Source of the DNA: a virus
Taxonomy: Duplodnaviria; Caudoviricetes
Virus record (IMG/VR): IMGVR_UViG_3300036982_000947
Coordinates: 1 to 28,528 of that record
Reading direction: 5' to 3' (one strand)
Length of the DNA: 28,528 bases
In this document: in pieces, positions 13,337-28,528 of the stretch
Layout: every line of letters begins with the position of its first letter
Position numbering within the stretch: position 1 is the stretch's first letter
Translations under genes and position numbers: made by a program
Notes under the pieces: model-generated
What the model was told of the DNA's origin: nothing
Databases searched by the model: none
Seen by the model: only the letters and a program-made list of their open reading frames with translations

Positions 13337-13585
13337 ATGGAAATTTTAGGTTTTAATGTTATTTTTGGAATTTTATTAAGCGTTATAGCTTTTTTTCTAA
13401 AAGGTACTATGGATGATATAAAAAAGATGAAAGAATGTGTTTATTCTACTAAAACAAAGGTAGAAGTTATGGAATCTGACTATTTGAATAAGCATCATAA
13501 CTTAAATGAAAAGTTCGATATGCTAAATCAAAGCATGAGAGAATTAACTGCTGAAATAAAAGCCTTAAGAGGCAAAATAAATTAA
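13337..13585 (+). CDS. Single-TM coiled-coil protein, holin/lysis-accessory-like
   Basis: N-terminal hydrophobic helix (ILGFNVIFGILLSVIAFFL) plus coiled coil; last gene of the structural operon. Confidence 0.5.
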   Translation: MEILGFNVIFGILLSVIAFFLKGTMDDIKKMKECVYSTKTKVEVMESDYLNKHHNLNEKFDMLNQSMRELTAEIKALRGKIN

Positions 13586-13614
13586 AACTAAATAAATTTA
13601 TACAATATAAATTA
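13581..13614 (+). promoter_or_regulatory. Bipartite promoter-like motif ATTAAAACT-N12-ACAATATAAATTA, copy 1
   Basis: Shares both blocks with the copy at 13943-13977. Confidence 0.5.
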
Positions 13615-13636
13615 TGCTGGTTTTGTTATTATTATT

Positions 13637-13674
13637 AAATTGAAGTTATTTAAATATAGCTTCAATTTTTTTTT
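13637..13674 (+). terminator. Intrinsic terminator ending the structural operon
   Basis: aaattgaagttat-ttaaat-atagcttcaattt (13-bp stem, one G:U) running into a 9-T tract. Confidence 0.75.
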
Positions 13675-13682
13675 ATCTATTG

Positions 13683-13937
13683 AGAACGAGTTCGTGTTAG
13701 TCACGAACTCTCTATTTTTAACAAAAATTAAATCTTCTGTAAGTCAATGGTGGTAAGGCTTTCAGAGGAAAAAATGAAAAAAAGTGCAAACATATTACTT
13801 TATTAATTCAATTTATTATTAATAAATATTTATATTCGATTTTATCTTAACTTTATTTAATTTTACTTTAATATCTTAACTTGCTTGCTGCACGAAATTT
13901 TGAGTTAGAGAGTTCGTGCCCAACACGAACTCGTTCT
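13683..13937. repeat. Inverted pair of 32-bp self-palindromic elements flanking an AT-rich core; putative replication origin
   Basis: 13683-13714 agaacGAGTTCGTGttagtCACGAACTCtcta and 13906-13937 tagaGAGTTCGTGcccaaCACGAACTCgttct are reverse complements (30/32), separated by 191 bp. The repeat is certain; the origin role is inferred. Confidence 0.9.
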
Positions 13938-13942
13938 AAATT

Positions 13943-13977
13943 ATTAAAACTTTATTAAAGGATAACAATATAAATTA
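13943..13977 (+). promoter_or_regulatory. Bipartite promoter-like motif ATTAAAACT-N13-ACAATATAAATTA, copy 2
   Basis: ACAATATA at 13965-13972, 18 nt upstream of ATG 13991. Confidence 0.55.
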
Positions 13978-13990
13978 AAATAATAATTGT

Positions 13991-14143
13991 ATGGCTGATA
14001 TTAAAATTTGTGAATATAGGAATTGCAATGAAGAATTAATTGATAAAAGGAAGGATGCTAAGTTTTGTTGTAGAACTCATAAAGATTGCGAAAGAATTTA
14101 CAAAAAAAGAGAAAAAAACAAAAAAATTATTCAAAATAATTAA
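13991..14143 (+). CDS. Zinc-finger microprotein (50 aa, not in ORF track)
   Basis: MADIKICEYRNCNEELIDKRKDAKFCCRTHKDCERIYKKREKNKKIIQNN: Cx4C...KFCCxxH plus a basic helix. Confidence 0.75.
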   Translation: MADIKICEYRNCNEELIDKRKDAKFCCRTHKDCERIYKKREKNKKIIQNN

Positions 14144-14180
14144 AAGGGAGAACAGATAATAAGATATATATTGTATAAGA

Positions 14181-14269
14181 TTCATTTCATTTAAGAGCAC
14201 TGAAAACCGGAAAGTAAGTGCTCTTTTTCAAAAAATGATTGAATTAAAAAATATTTAAAATGAAATGAA
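14181..14269 (+). promoter_or_regulatory. Structured leader/attenuator of the polymerase-like gene
   Basis: ttcatttcattt (14181-14192) is the exact complement of aaatgaaATGaa (14258-14269); between them hairpin aagagcact/agtgctctt (14193-14225) with T tail. Confidence 0.6.
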
Positions 14270-15446
14270 GAAATATTTGATTCCCGTCAAATTGCTTGAT
14301 AGAATAAAATTTGGAATAGAAAGTTCTAGCGATTTTATTCGATTAAAAGAAAAGCAAAAATTAAAGCTAACACAAACTTTAATATCTTTATGGCTCTTTA
14401 TTTACAATGAGCAGAGAAAAGATGAAAGTATATCTACCTTAAAAGGTTATACTAATATTCATACACATAATCTTATACACTTTAGAATTAAATTAGACAA
14501 TAAGCTTTTTACTTATTCTAATATGATAGAGTTTTTAGAAAAATTCGATTTACTTGAAACGAACCATATATTCAGTTCAGGTTCATTTTCTAAAAGCTAT
14601 CGAGTTTTGACTGACTTTTTAGAATTAGATTTTATTGAATTTGAAATTGACTTTGAAAAGATTTTTACTAATATAAAAGATAAAAAATATTGGCTTAAAA
14701 AATATCCAGATTTACATAAGCAAATAAAAGAGACATATGAAGTAAAAATTAATTTGAGTGACTATATTAGGTGGATTAATAATAATATTGGCACAGAACT
14801 AAAACCTGTTATCAACGATGGTGTTTTAGAAACAAGATTTTTGACTAAAGAAAGAGCACTCGATTATATTAATGATGCTATTAAAGTAAATTTAGAAAAT
14901 ATTTGGTTTAAGTTATCAGATGAAGGTAGGTTCTATAATTCTACAACGAACCTCTCTTATACATCTTTGCCGTTTATGCAACTTAAAAGAAGAAATATTA
15001 AAGAAGTAGATGTGAAGAATTGCCAACCTTTATTATTATGTGCTTTGATAAAAAATGAATTATACAAAAAAGATGTTGAAGCAGGAATATTTTATGATAG
15101 AGTAGCTGAAAAATTAAATAAAACAAGAGATGAATTTAAAGTTTTATCATATAAATATATCTTCTTTAGTTCTAAAAATCTAAAATCAGGTGCTATTTAC
15201 GATGCTATTAATGAATTATATCCAGGTTTTATTGAAGAAATGAATGAATTGAGAAGCAAAATAAATGTTGCTAGAGAGTTACAAAAAGTAGAATCAAATA
15301 TATTCGTAAAAAATATAAGCAACTACGATTTTAAAATGGTTTTAAGACATGATGCAGTTTTTGTTTTTGAAGAAGATTTTGATTTAGTAAAGCAATTAGT
15401 TATTGACGAATTTAAAAAATTAGGTTTAAAAGCAACCATAAAATAA
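14265..15446 (+). CDS. Minimal family-A (PolA/T7-RNAP superfamily) polymerase-like replication protein, no exonuclease domain
   Basis: Ordered motifs DEGRFY, EVDVKNCQP (motif A), RDEFKVLSYKYIF (motif B, R-x3-K-x3-Y-x3-F), LQKVES, RHDAV (motif C). Confidence 0.7.
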   Translation: MKKYLIPVKLLDRIKFGIESSSDFIRLKEKQKLKLTQTLISLWLFIYNEQRKDESISTLKGYTNIHTHNLIHFRIKLDNKLFTYSNMIEFLEKFDLLETNHIFSSGSFSKSYRVLTDFLELDFIEFEIDFEKIFTNIKDKKYWLKKYPDLHKQIKETYEVKINLSDYIRWINNNIGTELKPVINDGVLETRFLTKERALDYINDAIKVNLENIWFKLSDEGRFYNSTTNLSYTSLPFMQLKRRNIKEVDVKNCQPLLLCALIKNELYKKDVEAGIFYDRVAEKLNKTRDEFKVLSYKYIFFSSKNLKSGAIYDAINELYPGFIEEMNELRSKINVARELQKVESNIFVKNISNYDFKMVLRHDAVFVFEEDFDLVKQLVIDEFKKLGLKATIK

Positions 15447-15458
15447 AAATATAAAATT

Positions 15459-15911
15459 ATGAAAAACTATAAAAAAAAAGACAATGGATTTATTTATTTA
15501 ATATTTGATGGTAAATATTTTAAGATAGGTAAAACCGATAACCTTGAAGCAAGATTTAAAACTATAAAATCATCGAATATAAATTCAAAATTGATTGCTT
15601 CCAGTTACAGAACAAGAAAAAGTTTTATTGAAAATTATCTACATGCAAAGTTTAGAATATTCAGAAAGCAAGGTGAATGGTTTTTAATAAATGACTATAA
15701 AGAACTTGTAAAACTTTGGTTATCTTTTTCTACCTTTAATTATGATTTTGATGAAATTGCATCAATTAACTTCAATTGTGATATTAGCATAATTAAATTA
15801 TTAAGAGAATATTCTATGAAAGAACTTGAAAAAGAAAGCGATGAATTTTTAAGAGAAATGAATGCAGCCGAATCGGATGATATTGGAATATTTGGAAAAA
15901 AACTTATATAA
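15459..15911 (+). CDS. T5orf172/MUG113-like GIY-YIG domain protein
   Basis: GFIYLI..YFKIGKT..LEARF....SSN...ENYLHAKF...GEWF. Confidence 0.85.
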   Translation: MKNYKKKDNGFIYLIFDGKYFKIGKTDNLEARFKTIKSSNINSKLIASSYRTRKSFIENYLHAKFRIFRKQGEWFLINDYKELVKLWLSFSTFNYDFDEIASINFNCDISIIKLLREYSMKELEKESDEFLREMNAAESDDIGIFGKKLI

Positions 15912-15926
15912 AAATAATAAAAAACT

Positions 15927-16109
15927 ATGAAAAAAGATAAAGAAACATCGAAACTAAAACTTTTGCGAATAAATCGTGAAATACAAAAAATCGAAGGTTT
16001 TATTAAATATAATAATATAATTGGTGAAGGACCTGGCTCTTATGATGAAATATTAGCCGACTTAAAAATGAAGGCTCGAGATTTAAAACTAGAACAAATA
16101 TTGCTATAA
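15927..16109 (+). CDS. Hypothetical protein
   Basis: 60 aa with A-rich start region, ending at a terminator; C-terminal RDLKLEQILL. Confidence 0.7.
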   Translation: MKKDKETSKLKLLRINREIQKIEGFIKYNNIIGEGPGSYDEILADLKMKARDLKLEQILL

Positions 16110-16141
16110 AAAAAAGTGGTTCAGAAATGAACCACTTTTTT
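16108..16141. terminator. Bidirectional intrinsic terminator
   Basis: A8-gtggttca-gaaa-tgaaccac-T6 between convergent genes. Confidence 0.9.
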
Positions 16142-16154
16142 AATAATTATAAAA

Positions 16155-16364
16155 CTAAGCGATTTGATTTGCAATTCTATATTGAAATATAGAATTATAG
16201 GCTATTAGAATATCAAATTCATCTGTTGTGAATAAAGATTTGCAATCGATTAAAAAATCGTGTAAATAGTCATCGTCGTTTAAAATCGATTCTGAATAGC
16301 CGTAGTTATTTACAATTAAGATTGCTCTTTCTAAAAGAATTTTGAAAATGTTGATTTGTTCCAT
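16155..16364 (-). CDS. Hypothetical acidic protein
   Basis: 69 aa; A-rich leader on - strand, upstream TATATA palindrome, downstream bidirectional terminator. Confidence 0.7.
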   Translation of the reverse strand: MEQINIFKILLERAILIVNNYGYSESILNDDDYLHDFLIDCKSLFTTDEFDILIAYNSIFQYRIANQIA

Positions 16365-16394
16365 GGTTGCTGTTTTTGTTTTTATATCTTTCGA

Positions 16395-16551
16395 TTAATA
16401 TATATATTAAGTTTAAAAAGTGGTTTTTTGATTTTTCTATATTTTATTAAAAAAAAATAAAAAAAAAATTATTTTTTTTAGCTACCCTCAAAATTTTCAA
16501 AAAAACGAAGATTTAGAAAAAAGATATATATTTTATCTAATATATATATTA
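16395..16551. promoter_or_regulatory. Divergent control region bracketed by two TAATATATATATTA palindromes
   Basis: Identical 14-bp palindromes at 16396-16409 and 16538-16551; AAGATATATATT at 16521 also occurs at 14161. Confidence 0.6.
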
Positions 16552-16606
16552 TAAGATTAAAAGTTTAAGATTAATGTCTGTTTATTTATTCTAATTTGTG
16601 TGACTC

Positions 16607-16627
16607 GAGCCGGTGAAATTCCGGCTC
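16607..16627 (+). other. GC-rich hairpin in leader of 16649 gene
   Basis: gagccgg-tgaaatt-ccggctc, followed by tt and an A-run. Confidence 0.65.
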
Positions 16628-16648
16628 TTAAAAAAATAAAAAAAGAAG

Positions 16649-17038
16649 ATGACTAAAAAAGAAATAATAGAAAAGATTGAAAGGCAAGCAGGCTATATTG
16701 ATGCAGTTGATGCACTTTGCCTTATATCCGTTTTTACAGATGAATTTGGAATCGTTATGACTAAAATGGATAAAGAAGATGAATTGACGTGGATGTATAT
16801 GAAATTAAAAGGCTATAAAGAAAAAGATAAAACAAAATCTGCTAATTTCTTCGAGAGGAATAAATCTAAAATTTGTCGAGGTTGCAAAATTGAAAAGAAG
16901 CACTACGAGTTTAAGTCCTACTACTACAAAGATGTAAAAACCAGAAAATCTACTTGCATGGATTGTGACGCTAAATATAAAGATTTTTCTGATAACTGGC
17001 AGAAGTCAATAGAAGAAAAAATAAAAAAGATGAAATAG
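16649..17038 (+). CDS. Zinc-binding protein (CxxC...CxxC)
   Basis: KICRGCKIEK...EF...STCMDC treble-clef-like motif. Confidence 0.7.
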   Translation: MTKKEIIEKIERQAGYIDAVDALCLISVFTDEFGIVMTKMDKEDELTWMYMKLKGYKEKDKTKSANFFERNKSKICRGCKIEKKHYEFKSYYYKDVKTRKSTCMDCDAKYKDFSDNWQKSIEEKIKKMK

Positions 17039-17040
17039 TT

Positions 17041-17514
17041 ATGAATGAATTAGAAAAATTTGAAAAGCTGAAAGAACTCGGTTATATCTACGATAGGCAC
17101 ACAGGAATAGTTACTAGTCCGAAAGGAAAAGAAGTAAAAGCAAATAAATTAGGTTGGATTTATTTCGCCACTAAAATTAATAAAATCTATTATCAGACAT
17201 ACGTTCATCGTTACGGATTTTGGTTCATAACAGGTTTAATTCCTACACATATAGATCATATCAATAGAGTTCGACATGATAACAGGTTCGAAAATATAAG
17301 AGCCTCTGACTATATTCTTAACGGACAGAATAAGCCATCTACCTATAAAGGTTATATTAAAACTATTAATATTCATGATGGCGATAGATTTATGATTATA
17401 ACTATTAGAAATAATAAATTTCAAGTTTTAGGTAAATTTGATAGTGAAGAAGAAGTCGTTGAATTTAGGCAATATCTTAAAGATAATAAAAAATCATTAA
17501 CTAAAAATGTTTAA
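17041..17514 (+). CDS. HNH homing-type endonuclease
   Basis: HRYGFWFITG..P..IDHINRVRHDNRFENIR; degenerate AP2-like C-terminus (LGKFDSEEE). Confidence 0.85.
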   Translation: MNELEKFEKLKELGYIYDRHTGIVTSPKGKEVKANKLGWIYFATKINKIYYQTYVHRYGFWFITGLIPTHIDHINRVRHDNRFENIRASDYILNGQNKPSTYKGYIKTINIHDGDRFMIITIRNNKFQVLGKFDSEEEVVEFRQYLKDNKKSLTKNV

Positions 17515-18964: not shown

Positions 18965-19174
18965 ATGATAGAATTAACTGAAATTGAATTAAAGTTCATT
19001 GAGAAAATGGATAGAACTAAAGTTCCGAATAAAATTGAGGCTAAGGCTTTGCAAGAATTATACGATAAAATCAAAGGAACTAAAACACCCTACAATTGCT
19101 TTTGTAGCTCTTCATCGAGAGAGAATTTCAAAAGAATATTTTTTAAGGTATATGAAGAATATAAATCTAAATAA
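18965..19174 (+). CDS. Hypothetical protein with CxC motif
   Basis: 69 aa abutting both neighbours; LYDKI...NCFCSS. Confidence 0.7.
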   Translation: MIELTEIELKFIEKMDRTKVPNKIEAKALQELYDKIKGTKTPYNCFCSSSSRENFKRIFFKVYEEYKSK

Positions 19175-19178
19175 TAAA

Positions 19179-19715
19179 ATGATAATGACTAAAAACCAGC
19201 TAGACAAAGATTTCATTAAAATTTATAGTTCAATAGATGAATATGCTACCAAAGCTATAAAATTTTTTAGAAGCAATATAGAAAAAGAATATCTTTTGAG
19301 TGAAGCCTATATTTATGTAGAAGAAAGAAAGATGTTGATAAGCAATATAAATATACTCGAGAGTTTTTGTAAAAACTTTATTAAAAAATCTATTATATGG
19401 AAGAATAGCAAAATAAATCGTGAATTAAAAAAGCAAATTCCATTTTCAGATTTAGAATCCATATCTTATCGATATACTACTACGAACGATCCGAACTATG
19501 ATGAATATTTAGATTTATTAACGGAGTTCAATAAAAATTTAAGTCCTTATGATAAAAGGTTATTTAATATTTGGTTCAATTTAGAATTAAAAACTGGCAA
19601 GAAAATTTCTGAATATTTAAAAATATCTTTAAGTTTAAGTTATCGAACTATTAAAGAGTGCAAAGAAATTGAAGAAAGATTTAAGAATTATATTCTGATA
19701 AAATCTATTCTATAA
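19179..19715 (+). CDS. Sigma-70/ECF-like transcription factor
   Basis: Start moved to ATG 19179 (or 19185); LLSEAYIY region-2-like segment and LSPYDKRLF...GKKISEYLKISLSLSYRTIK region-4 HTH; lies upstream of the terminase/late genes. Confidence 0.6.
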   Translation: MIMTKNQLDKDFIKIYSSIDEYATKAIKFFRSNIEKEYLLSEAYIYVEERKMLISNINILESFCKNFIKKSIIWKNSKINRELKKQIPFSDLESISYRYTTTNDPNYDEYLDLLTEFNKNLSPYDKRLFNIWFNLELKTGKKISEYLKISLSLSYRTIKECKEIEERFKNYILIKSIL

Positions 19716-27930: not shown

Positions 27931-28528
27931 ATGGATATAAATATAAATCTTAATGTAAATAGTGAGCCTTTAGTCGAAATGGCTCAAAGAGCTAATGAAG
28001 CTAATTCAAATGCTCAAAATCTAAATAATACACTTAAAGATAAAACACCTGAAAGCCAAATAACAAAAAATGGCACATCACTTAGAAGCACAGGTGTAGC
28101 AATGAAAGGATTAAGTCAAGCAGTAGGTGGATTTGATAAATTAGCTGGTACCGCTTTTAGTGGAGCAAATGATGGTGTAAAAGCTTTAGCTTCTAGTTTT
28201 TTAGGATTAGGTAGGGTTTTGCCTTTAGTAAGAACTGCTTTTGCTGCCTTTAATGCTGTTTTAGCCACCAACCCTTTTGTAGGAATTGCGATTGCTATAA
28301 GTGCTGTTGTTGTAGGAATTGGATTTTTATTAAATGGTATAGGACTATTACAACCTATTTTTGATGCCATTGGAATTGTTGTAGAAGCCTTAATTAGGAA
28401 TTTAAGGAACTTAACTGATTGGCTTGGATTAACAAGTGAAGAAATGGAAGATGGTTCTATTGCATCTGATAAATATGCTAATGCTTTGAAAAGAGTAAAT
28501 GCTGAAGCTAAGAAGAATATAAGAGAAG
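27931..28528 (+). CDS. Tail tape measure protein, N-terminal part (not in ORF track; continues across junction to 1650)
   Basis: Open frame MDININLNVNSEPLVEMAQ...FNAVLATNPFVGIAIAISAVVVGI...LRNLTDWLG; 28402-27931=471, so in frame with base 1. Confidence 0.9.
   Translation, partial: MDININLNVNSEPLVEMAQRANEANSNAQNLNNTLKDKTPESQITKNGTSLRSTGVAMKGLSQAVGGFDKLAGTAFSGANDGVKALASSFLGLGRVLPLVRTAFAAFNAVLATNPFVGIAIAISAVVVGIGFLLNGIGLLQPIFDAIGIVVEALIRNLRNLTDWLGLTSEEMEDGSIASDKYANALKRVNAEAKKNIRE
28402..28528 (+). repeat. Terminal direct repeat, right copy (assembly overlap)
   Basis: Identical to 1-127. Confidence 0.97.

Follow-up and report, generated by a model that had tools for sequence, protein, structure and literature searches.

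A candidate one-protein replication initiator-primase with a PolA fold in a small tailed phage

Genome and locus

The stretch of DNA analysed here (the window, 28,528 nt, IMG/VR record IMGVR_UViG_3300036982_000947) represents a closed circular genome of 28,401 bp with a 127-nt terminal repeat. It belongs to a complete tailed phage, in which genes for portal, terminase, prohead protease, tail fibres and methyltransferase were recognised by Pfam and PHROG scans. The subject of this work is a gene for a protein of 393 amino acids (aa) together with the region upstream of it (Table 1), which includes the largest gap between open reading frames (ORFs) of the window (13586-13990, 405 bp). An initial annotation had rightly singled out this gap as the largest non-coding region, and had interpreted gene and gap as an undescribed replicon, in which the enzyme would prime one strand at each of two inverted hairpins. 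It had also stated that no other replication gene is recognisable and, indeed, none of the 34 window proteins matched a helicase, primase, other polymerase, initiator or integrase family in Pfam or PHROGs. The host of the phage is probably a member of the Bacteroidota, because homologues of the 393-aa gene sit in records of Psychroflexus, Flavobacterium and other Bacteroidota.

Table 1. Features of the locus (window positions) and copies of leader A in other loci
Feature	Position	Strand	Remarks
Palindrome 1	13688..13710	+	Followed by a T-run; inverted copy of palindrome 2; also in contig X2
AT-rich non-coding core	13728..13896		Candidate origin region
Palindrome 2	13910..13932	+	One copy kept in L081 and L001, oriented with the early/middle operon
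50-aa Cys/His microprotein ORF	13991..14143	+	Putative zinc finger, by residue pattern
ATATATA-containing motif	14164..14178	+	About 100 nt upstream of the gene; putative promoter
Leader B	14193..14230	+	9-bp stem, conserved 15-nt loop, then T-run; common to L081 and L001 (changed stem)
393-aa protein	14265..15446	+	Winged helix (about 1-134) and minimal family-A/T7-RNAP-type core (about 136-393); no exonuclease
Leader A copies	L327:3408-3486, L330:10208-10295
Leader A copies, continued	L002-L007, L010, L082, L093, L094, L099, L101, L107, L192, L676, L690

The 393-aa protein

The family-A polymerase motifs attributed to the protein at the outset were borne out, as was the expected palm: the AlphaFold model (predicted local distance difference test, pLDDT, 93.2) has a minimal core of the PolA/T7 RNA polymerase (RNAP) type. 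In the structural comparison (VIA) the best match was mitochondrial RNAP (Z 13.8, root-mean-square deviation 3.8, 241 aligned), followed by Pol theta (Z 12.5; 3.6, 233 aligned), T7 RNAP (Z 12.2; 7.0, 274 aligned) and Klenow (Z 12.1; 4.1, 240 aligned), while the N4 enzymes matched at Z 8.4. Residues 136-393 are thus fitted about equally well by family-A DNA polymerases and single-subunit RNAPs; in the Foldseek search of the PDB, every row shown is a family-A DNA polymerase. Residues 1-134 match winged helices at Z 5-6.3, which might be due to nothing more than a common arrangement.

The family to which the protein belongs is large. A word-based search gave 69 homologues among 5,224 candidates, while a profile search over 1.84 billion representatives retrieved 3,637 clusters at E<=0.001, of which 1,263 reached E<=1e-10. 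The taxonomic range of the homologues includes Bacteroidetes, Planctomycetes and Verrucomicrobia. No meaningful match was obtained for the protein in the Pfam and PHROG scans, nor in PDB sequence searches with the protein itself and with alignments A1 and A2; a single-sequence viral scan with the protein found nothing, a tblastn search of the distant homologue P0069 against phages gave no match, and the ESM Atlas returned unnamed clusters only.

Five catalytic residues (R222, D249, K292, E343 and D363) do not vary in any of the 92 sequences compared (19-46% identity), and for this reason the enzyme is very probably active. As to its product, Q254 presumably occupies the place of the steric-gate Glu of DNA polymerases, and F300 that of the ribonucleotide-selecting Tyr of T7 RNAP, both equivalences being based on motif spacing. 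Position 300 is F or L across the family, and motif C, mostly HDS or HDA, contains one acid. Since both usual selectors are replaced and motif C keeps one acid, the sequence does not settle whether DNA or RNA is made. Concerning gene content around the homologues, L130 carries the polymerase-like gene twice in one locus, and in G010 a stand-alone 3'-5' exonuclease gene (L581:6465-6950) lies two genes from it.

Exchange of the gene with initiators and primases

Seven near-complete phages of 30-34 kb with related head genes carry one copy of the gene each. From these seven phages, 112 representatives out of 165 protein clusters were scanned (75-900 aa, without a match to window proteins or to the polymerase; the 1166-aa SNF2/methyltransferase of G007 fell outside this range): none matched a helicase, primase or initiator, and one matched an exonuclease. 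The slot that the gene occupies was then compared across 42 portal-anchored loci that reach 6 kb or more downstream. The polymerase-like gene is present in ten, a primase-helicase in 13, and an initiator and/or a DnaB-like gene in 12; two have only a superfamily 2 (SF2) helicase, and five no recognised module, three of these with another gene order. Accordingly, a primase-helicase, initiator or DnaB-like gene is present at 0/10 loci with the polymerase-like gene versus 25/32 of the others. In the opposite direction, five records of the non-polymerase classes, of which four have a completeness of 90% or more, gave no polymerase match with the profile that detected the paralogue of G002. This paralogue was missed by profile A1 and detected by A2, so that such absence calls can miss more distant members.

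The exchange is seen also among the closest relatives by portal. In a quick tree built from 40 portals, from which L597, L598 and L601 had been excluded and in which identical sequences were merged, the window falls in a clade of four members with an SH-like approximate likelihood ratio test (SH-aLRT) value of 99, and each member has a different protein in the slot: the 393-aa protein in the window, a 20%-identical paralogue in G002, a 108-aa protein matching a 'replication initiation protein' in L327 (phrog_4707, E 7e-9), and in G016 a 456-aa protein similar to a BT4734-type primase cluster (E 5e-12), this last record being 98% complete and without a polymerase match. In-place exchange of non-homologous genes was taken as a sign of functional equivalence by Iyer et al. 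(PMC2579912). By the same reasoning, the exchange with initiators and primases indicates that the gene likely starts phage DNA replication. At the two sides of the variable slot stand endonuclease genes, of the T5orf172/MUG113 type (15459-15911) and of the HNH type (17041-17514), which may drive the exchange of modules.

A leader RNA shared with a classical initiator

Upstream of many homologues lies a structured RNA, here called leader A. It combines an outer stem with an inner hairpin, whose loop is self-complementary, and with a bulge able to pair with 7-13 nt adjacent to the start codon. A shorter, proximal complementary copy (3-8 nt) is located just past the stem, while the distal site adjoins the AUG. 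Since MAFFT did not align the leaders well enough to build a covariance model, they were sought with a script descriptor. With it, leader A was recognised ahead of 16 out of 153 distinct homologues, as against 4 of 1,668 other ORFs, an enrichment that is partly circular for the training loci, the descriptor having been written after the leaders had been seen; the copies of L192, L676 and L690 were found after its design. One of the four other ORFs is the L327 initiator, and the remaining three look like chance. The 18 copies contain 17 different pairing strands, and pairing of a bulge with its own site averages 8.0 bp versus 3.3 for cross-pairs, the own-site figure being inflated for the same reason; none of 1,800 shuffles matched.

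Rfam gave no match for the Bacteroidota copies. The family int-alpA (RF02996) reached at best 33.8 bits against a gathering threshold of 35.8, and this only in proteobacterial look-alikes that share the inner hairpin alone; L327, L082, L093 and a set of 11 sources gave no int-alpA match. Because the polymerase-like gene and a classical initiator have leader A in common, this RNA ties the gene to replication control. We infer that it might work as a translational switch with dimer sensing. In the close strain X3, 14171-14263 is exchanged for 90 other nt, the first 30 of which resemble leader A, and the leader is apparently present there.

The inner-hairpin motif was also observed upstream of replication, primosomal or helicase PHROG genes of unrelated phages, at 10 of 14 loci tested (L333, L336, L344, L352, L416, L466, L470, L473, L486 and L567); these ten miss the full description of leader A and some of them are near-threshold int-alpA. 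Another structure similar to leader A is located at L081:5205-5260 on the minus strand, just past the polymerase gene and with no gene behind it, and could be left over from a replication gene that has been displaced.

The palindromes and the AT-rich core

The two palindromes, each of the form GAGTTCGTG-N5-CACGAACTC with 9-bp arms and a 5-nt loop, do lie in inverted orientation around an AT-rich core, as first annotated. With their flanks they agree at 30 of 32 positions when the minus strand of copy 1 is set against the plus strand of copy 2, which makes the term 'inverted' correct. In 1000 dinucleotide shuffles of 13586-14264, a 9-bp hairpin with at least 5 G/C did not arise, and two same-arm hairpins arose once. 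Contig X2, from an independent study, covers 13590-14025 with one difference, so that the palindromes are not an assembly artefact.

The pair itself is not a property of the family. Among the 134 distinct homologous loci whose upstream region spans 600 nt or more, a GC-containing hairpin is found at 38 and a same-arm pair at 2, namely the window and the GC-rich L201. In L081 (95% aa identity) the core 13728-13896 is kept at 96% identity and inverted relative to the gene, and a single palindrome with one compensatory pair change stands about 290 bp away, past a small ORF; contig X4, whose enzyme is about 95% identical, has the same layout with one hairpin. In L001 (70% aa identity) the core, again inverted relative to the gene, is 74% identical over 82 nt, and the one hairpin has a different, 12-bp stem with a similar loop and the same closing GTG/CAC. 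In both L081 and L001 the single hairpin stands beyond the AT-rich core, on its far side, and palindrome 1 is missing at the corresponding place in L081, L001 and X4. In G002 only 157 bp lie upstream of the gene, with no such pair. The covariation of arms that had been anticipated for the pair therefore applies to one hairpin: kept with a compensatory change in L081 and a changed stem in L001, it is under selection in close relatives, and it may be part of the origin. Hairpin 1, in turn, is the sole terminator-like site detected in 13500-16700 (1 found, 0.4 expected) and follows the last late gene; it is likely the intrinsic terminator of the late operon, and the second copy of the hairpin in the window is likely a lineage-specific inverted duplicate serving this purpose.

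Two further explanations of the palindromes were rejected. As a gene-linked element, the palindrome core was sought across the collection: of 120 loci (40 with short flanks only), none had the polymerase nearby, and most represented a coding motif of unrelated genes. As recombination sites of an invertible switch, the palindromes have differing loops, no recombinase was found in the window scans, and contigs X1 and X2, which as contigs drop rare variants, contain no strand-changing joint between them. Within the core, two TATCTTAA repeats were noticed (13843-13882); another touches the L001 hairpin, several tandem copies occur upstream of the L098 gene, and they are possible binding boxes.

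Other features of the window

Of the zinc-finger microprotein proposed between core and gene, the 50-aa Cys/His ORF stands, while its identity as a finger rests on the residue pattern, since Pfam gave no match and PHROGs only E>=0.05. Homologues occur in L098, G009, L667, L690 and L696, the last three being 3 of the 9 distinct polymerase-bearing rows listed, while in L081 and G002 no such ORF lies between core and gene; the microprotein is thus a recurrent, non-obligatory neighbour. The ATATATA motif precedes also many homologues and the L327 initiator.

Elsewhere in the window, a single tape-measure-like gene spans the genome ends (27931-28528 and 1-1650), and a bidirectional terminator-like hairpin lies between convergent genes at 16110-16141. 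A second AT-rich gap, at 16398-16550, contains several ATATATA motifs. A sigma-70 promoter scan gave chance level (21 versus 24.5). Upstream of the terminase genes an ORF resembling a sigma factor (19152-19715) has homologues in close relatives; this identity was not confirmed, the single-sequence model having a pLDDT of 38.6 and the homologue L326 reaching only E 0.08 to a sigma PHROG.

Functional interpretation

In plasmid ColE2-P9, the Rep protein binds and opens the origin and synthesises a primer used by the polymerases of the host, and its dose is set through the leader of its own mRNA. We consider it probable that the 393-aa protein is a one-protein initiator-primase of this kind for the phage, built on a PolA fold. 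This reading is based on the fold, the invariant catalytic residues, the position as sole candidate replication gene, the slot exchange and the shared leader. Binding of the AT-rich non-coding DNA next to the gene would fall to the winged helix, and synthesis of a short primer de novo, that is, from no pre-existing primer, to the palm. The work would afterwards pass to the helicase and polymerases of the host, as it does for ColE2 Rep, and the structured 5' leader would dose the enzyme. Origin priming by T7 RNAP and by mitochondrial RNAP provides a further precedent for such a mechanism. Of the initiator/primase-polymerase module first suggested, therefore, the role in replication start is retained, as the synteny points to it, while the paired hairpins are given up as priming sites of the family.

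Several points weigh against this proposal. Structurally the protein comes closest to an RNAP, and its motif C contains a single acidic residue; distant homologues are also found in large records (200-735 kb); and an SSB (single-stranded DNA-binding protein) partner is not evident at the window locus, while CcPol, a related enzyme, cannot prime alone (PMC7581432). In barbaviruses the related divPolA2 adjoins PolB, and its authors suggest roles in repair or as RNA polymerase (PMC11348598). As for the exchange, the exclusivity counts include near-identical phages, the loci lacking a module or having only an SF2 helicase amount to 5/42 and 2/42, L327 is a fragment of 8.3 kb, and the portal tree, a quick one with long branches, needs 7 label changes where the minimum is 4. 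Finally, leader A is absent from the window, which has leader B, and the cumulative GC skew makes no switch at the locus, skew not being decisive for an origin.

A wider form of the initiator-primase proposal is more doubtful and is put forward tentatively. It would make these winged-helix/PolA enzymes a third stand-alone initiator-primase fold beside the archaeo-eukaryotic primases (AEP) and DnaG, a very large family (the 3,637 clusters at 50% identity) that would combine origin binding and priming without a helicase or SSB partner, would be freely exchanged with classical phage initiators, and would be dosed by a leader RNA. Through the self-complementary loop of this leader, mRNAs would pair with one another and shift a pseudoknot to the start codon. 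If true, copy number would be controlled without a separate antisense RNA.

Three other explanations have to be weighed. The first takes the protein as a replicative DNA polymerase, primer-dependent or self-priming, or as an enzyme of repair or gap filling, rather than a starter. It is the only polymerase in the genome, the Foldseek rows agree with DNA polymerases, the stand-alone exonuclease of G010 could be quoted in favour, and repair has been suggested for divPolA2 (Yutin et al., PMC11348598). On the other hand, the protein has neither a proofreading domain nor a clear full thumb, and no helicase partner; furthermore, the swap of the gene for non-catalytic initiators implies that elongation is performed by the host replisome, and we judge this explanation unlikely.

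The second, which we hold to be quite unlikely, sees a miniature single-subunit RNAP that would transcribe the genes of the phage and recognise promoters by its winged helix. Mitochondrial RNAP as best structural match, T7 RNAP within about 1.6 Z units of it, and the single acid of motif C are in line with this, and the option was raised by the authors of divPolA2 (PMC11348598). However, the slot is exchanged with initiators and primases and not with transcription genes, the ATATATA promoter-like motif precedes the L327 initiator at a locus without the enzyme, and position 300, if the equivalence is right, lacks the selecting Tyr. The third, in which both palindromes extrude and the enzyme primes one strand at each, like RepB' at ssiA/ssiB of RSF1010, is improbable: the pair is genuine and inverted, is not explained by chance and was seen in two assemblies, it flanks a conserved core, one hairpin covaries in L081 and L001, and the detrended AT-skew minimum, confounded by gene content, falls at 13956, but the pair occurs at 2/134 loci, nearly identical enzymes manage with one hairpin, hairpin 1 fits a terminator, and the 34 window proteins include no helicase or iteron-binding partner comparable to RSF1010 RepA/RepC.

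The initiator-primase proposal gains direct comparative evidence for a role at replication start, in that this 28-kb phage has the gene as its sole candidate for replication and near relatives have initiators or primases in its place, behind the same leader RNA. A 1.9-kb fragment and the 393-aa protein offer a testable system for minimal PolA function, which is relevant to the divergence of DNA and RNA synthesis among family-A polymerases.

Comparison with known systems

Minimal PolA-type phage polymerases have been described computationally since 2008, with repair, transcription and priming as proposed roles (PMC2579912, PMC11348598), and in the literature examined CcPol is the only one of them to have been assayed. 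The label 'undescribed' was therefore overstated, the fold class being in print as TV-Pol (2008) and divPolA2 (2024); a literature search, with subscription journals largely outside its coverage, found no account of this branch, of the displacement pattern or of leader A. TV-Pol was defined as a minimal superfamily-A core without nuclease and proposed as a primase-polymerase; some of its members carry a globular domain at the N-terminus and lie near integrases (Iyer, Abhiman and Aravind 2008, PMC2579912). By motif features and predicted fold, the 393-aa protein is best read as a relative of TV-Pol and divPolA2.

Compared with TV-Pol, the conserved-Arg beta-hairpin is represented by R222 between strands 215-217 and 223-225, and the palm with two conserved Asp by D249 and D363, all in 92/92 sequences; of the fingers RxxxK, R288 is kept in 80/92 and K292 in 92/92. 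The two-helix antiparallel thumb may correspond to model helices 140-173 and 195-209. A nuclease is likewise missing, as winged helix and core account for the model and the top 150 homologues do not exceed 595 aa, and the taxonomic range given above is similar. As to context, tyrosine integrases lie near four bacterial copies (L162, L164, L165 and L167) and serine recombinases occur in G006; a D5 helicase, fused or neighbouring, occurs neither in the window nor in 7 relatives. Unlike TV-Pol, for which an all-helical N-terminal domain is predicted (PMC2579912), the protein has a winged helix with beta strands, and small tailed phages have its gene as their only candidate for replication.

The divPolA2 polymerase (Yutin et al. 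2024, PMC11348598) is a protein of about 400-430 aa with an active-looking palm, no exonuclease and an N-terminal domain. The 393-aa protein shares the palm, the lack of exonuclease, the N-terminal globular domain and mitochondrial RNAP as top structural match, and the barbavirus divPolA2 protein is a fold match to it (E 3e-5). PHROG family phrog_4756, which the paper's example AUR84708 matches at E 1.8e-91, is matched by 30 of 92 family members; a hidden Markov model search of MG592441 gave no match. Because the window protein itself has no phrog_4756 match and the profile comparison is weak (hhalign, P 28%, 79 columns), it is placed as a distant sister of divPolA2. Moreover, unlike divPolA2, which stands beside PolB in larger phages, it has no other polymerase among the 34 window proteins.

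CcPol, a TV-Pol member, is an experimentally shown primase that acts only with a partner protein (PMC7581432). The CcPol-MP and PolA-SSB primases need an OB-fold (oligonucleotide/oligosaccharide-binding) partner and a helicase, keep E710 and are specific for deoxynucleoside triphosphates (PMC7581432; PMC10061031). A family-A domain on a mobile element is common to CcPol-MP and the phage, and the de novo priming proposed here is a feature of CcPol-MP; unlike CcPol-MP, the phage protein has Q at the E710 column and a fused winged helix, with no helicase in the window or 7 relatives. The neighbours of its gene are the 50-aa Cys/His ORF and the T5orf172/MUG113 protein.

Towards the T7/N4-type RNAPs, the core fold is shared (Z 12.2 and 8.4), while the size differs, 393 aa versus targets of 830-1095 aa that carry an N-terminal promoter-binding domain, as does the motif-B Tyr, replaced by F/L at column 300 if the equivalence holds. 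The opposite hairpins conserved in systems of the RSF1010 ssiA/ssiB type have their counterpart at 2 of the 134 loci, L081, L001 and X4 having a single hairpin. ColE2 Rep, a primase with the AEP fold, is encoded by a plasmid under antisense-RNA control; it is an analogy in the way of working and not a homologue of the 393-aa protein. In the IncI/IncB plasmids, a structured leader with a pseudoknot formed by long-range pairing stands ahead of the rep gene. Unlike this leader and int-alpA, leader A has both a self-complementary loop and two alternative pairing sites.

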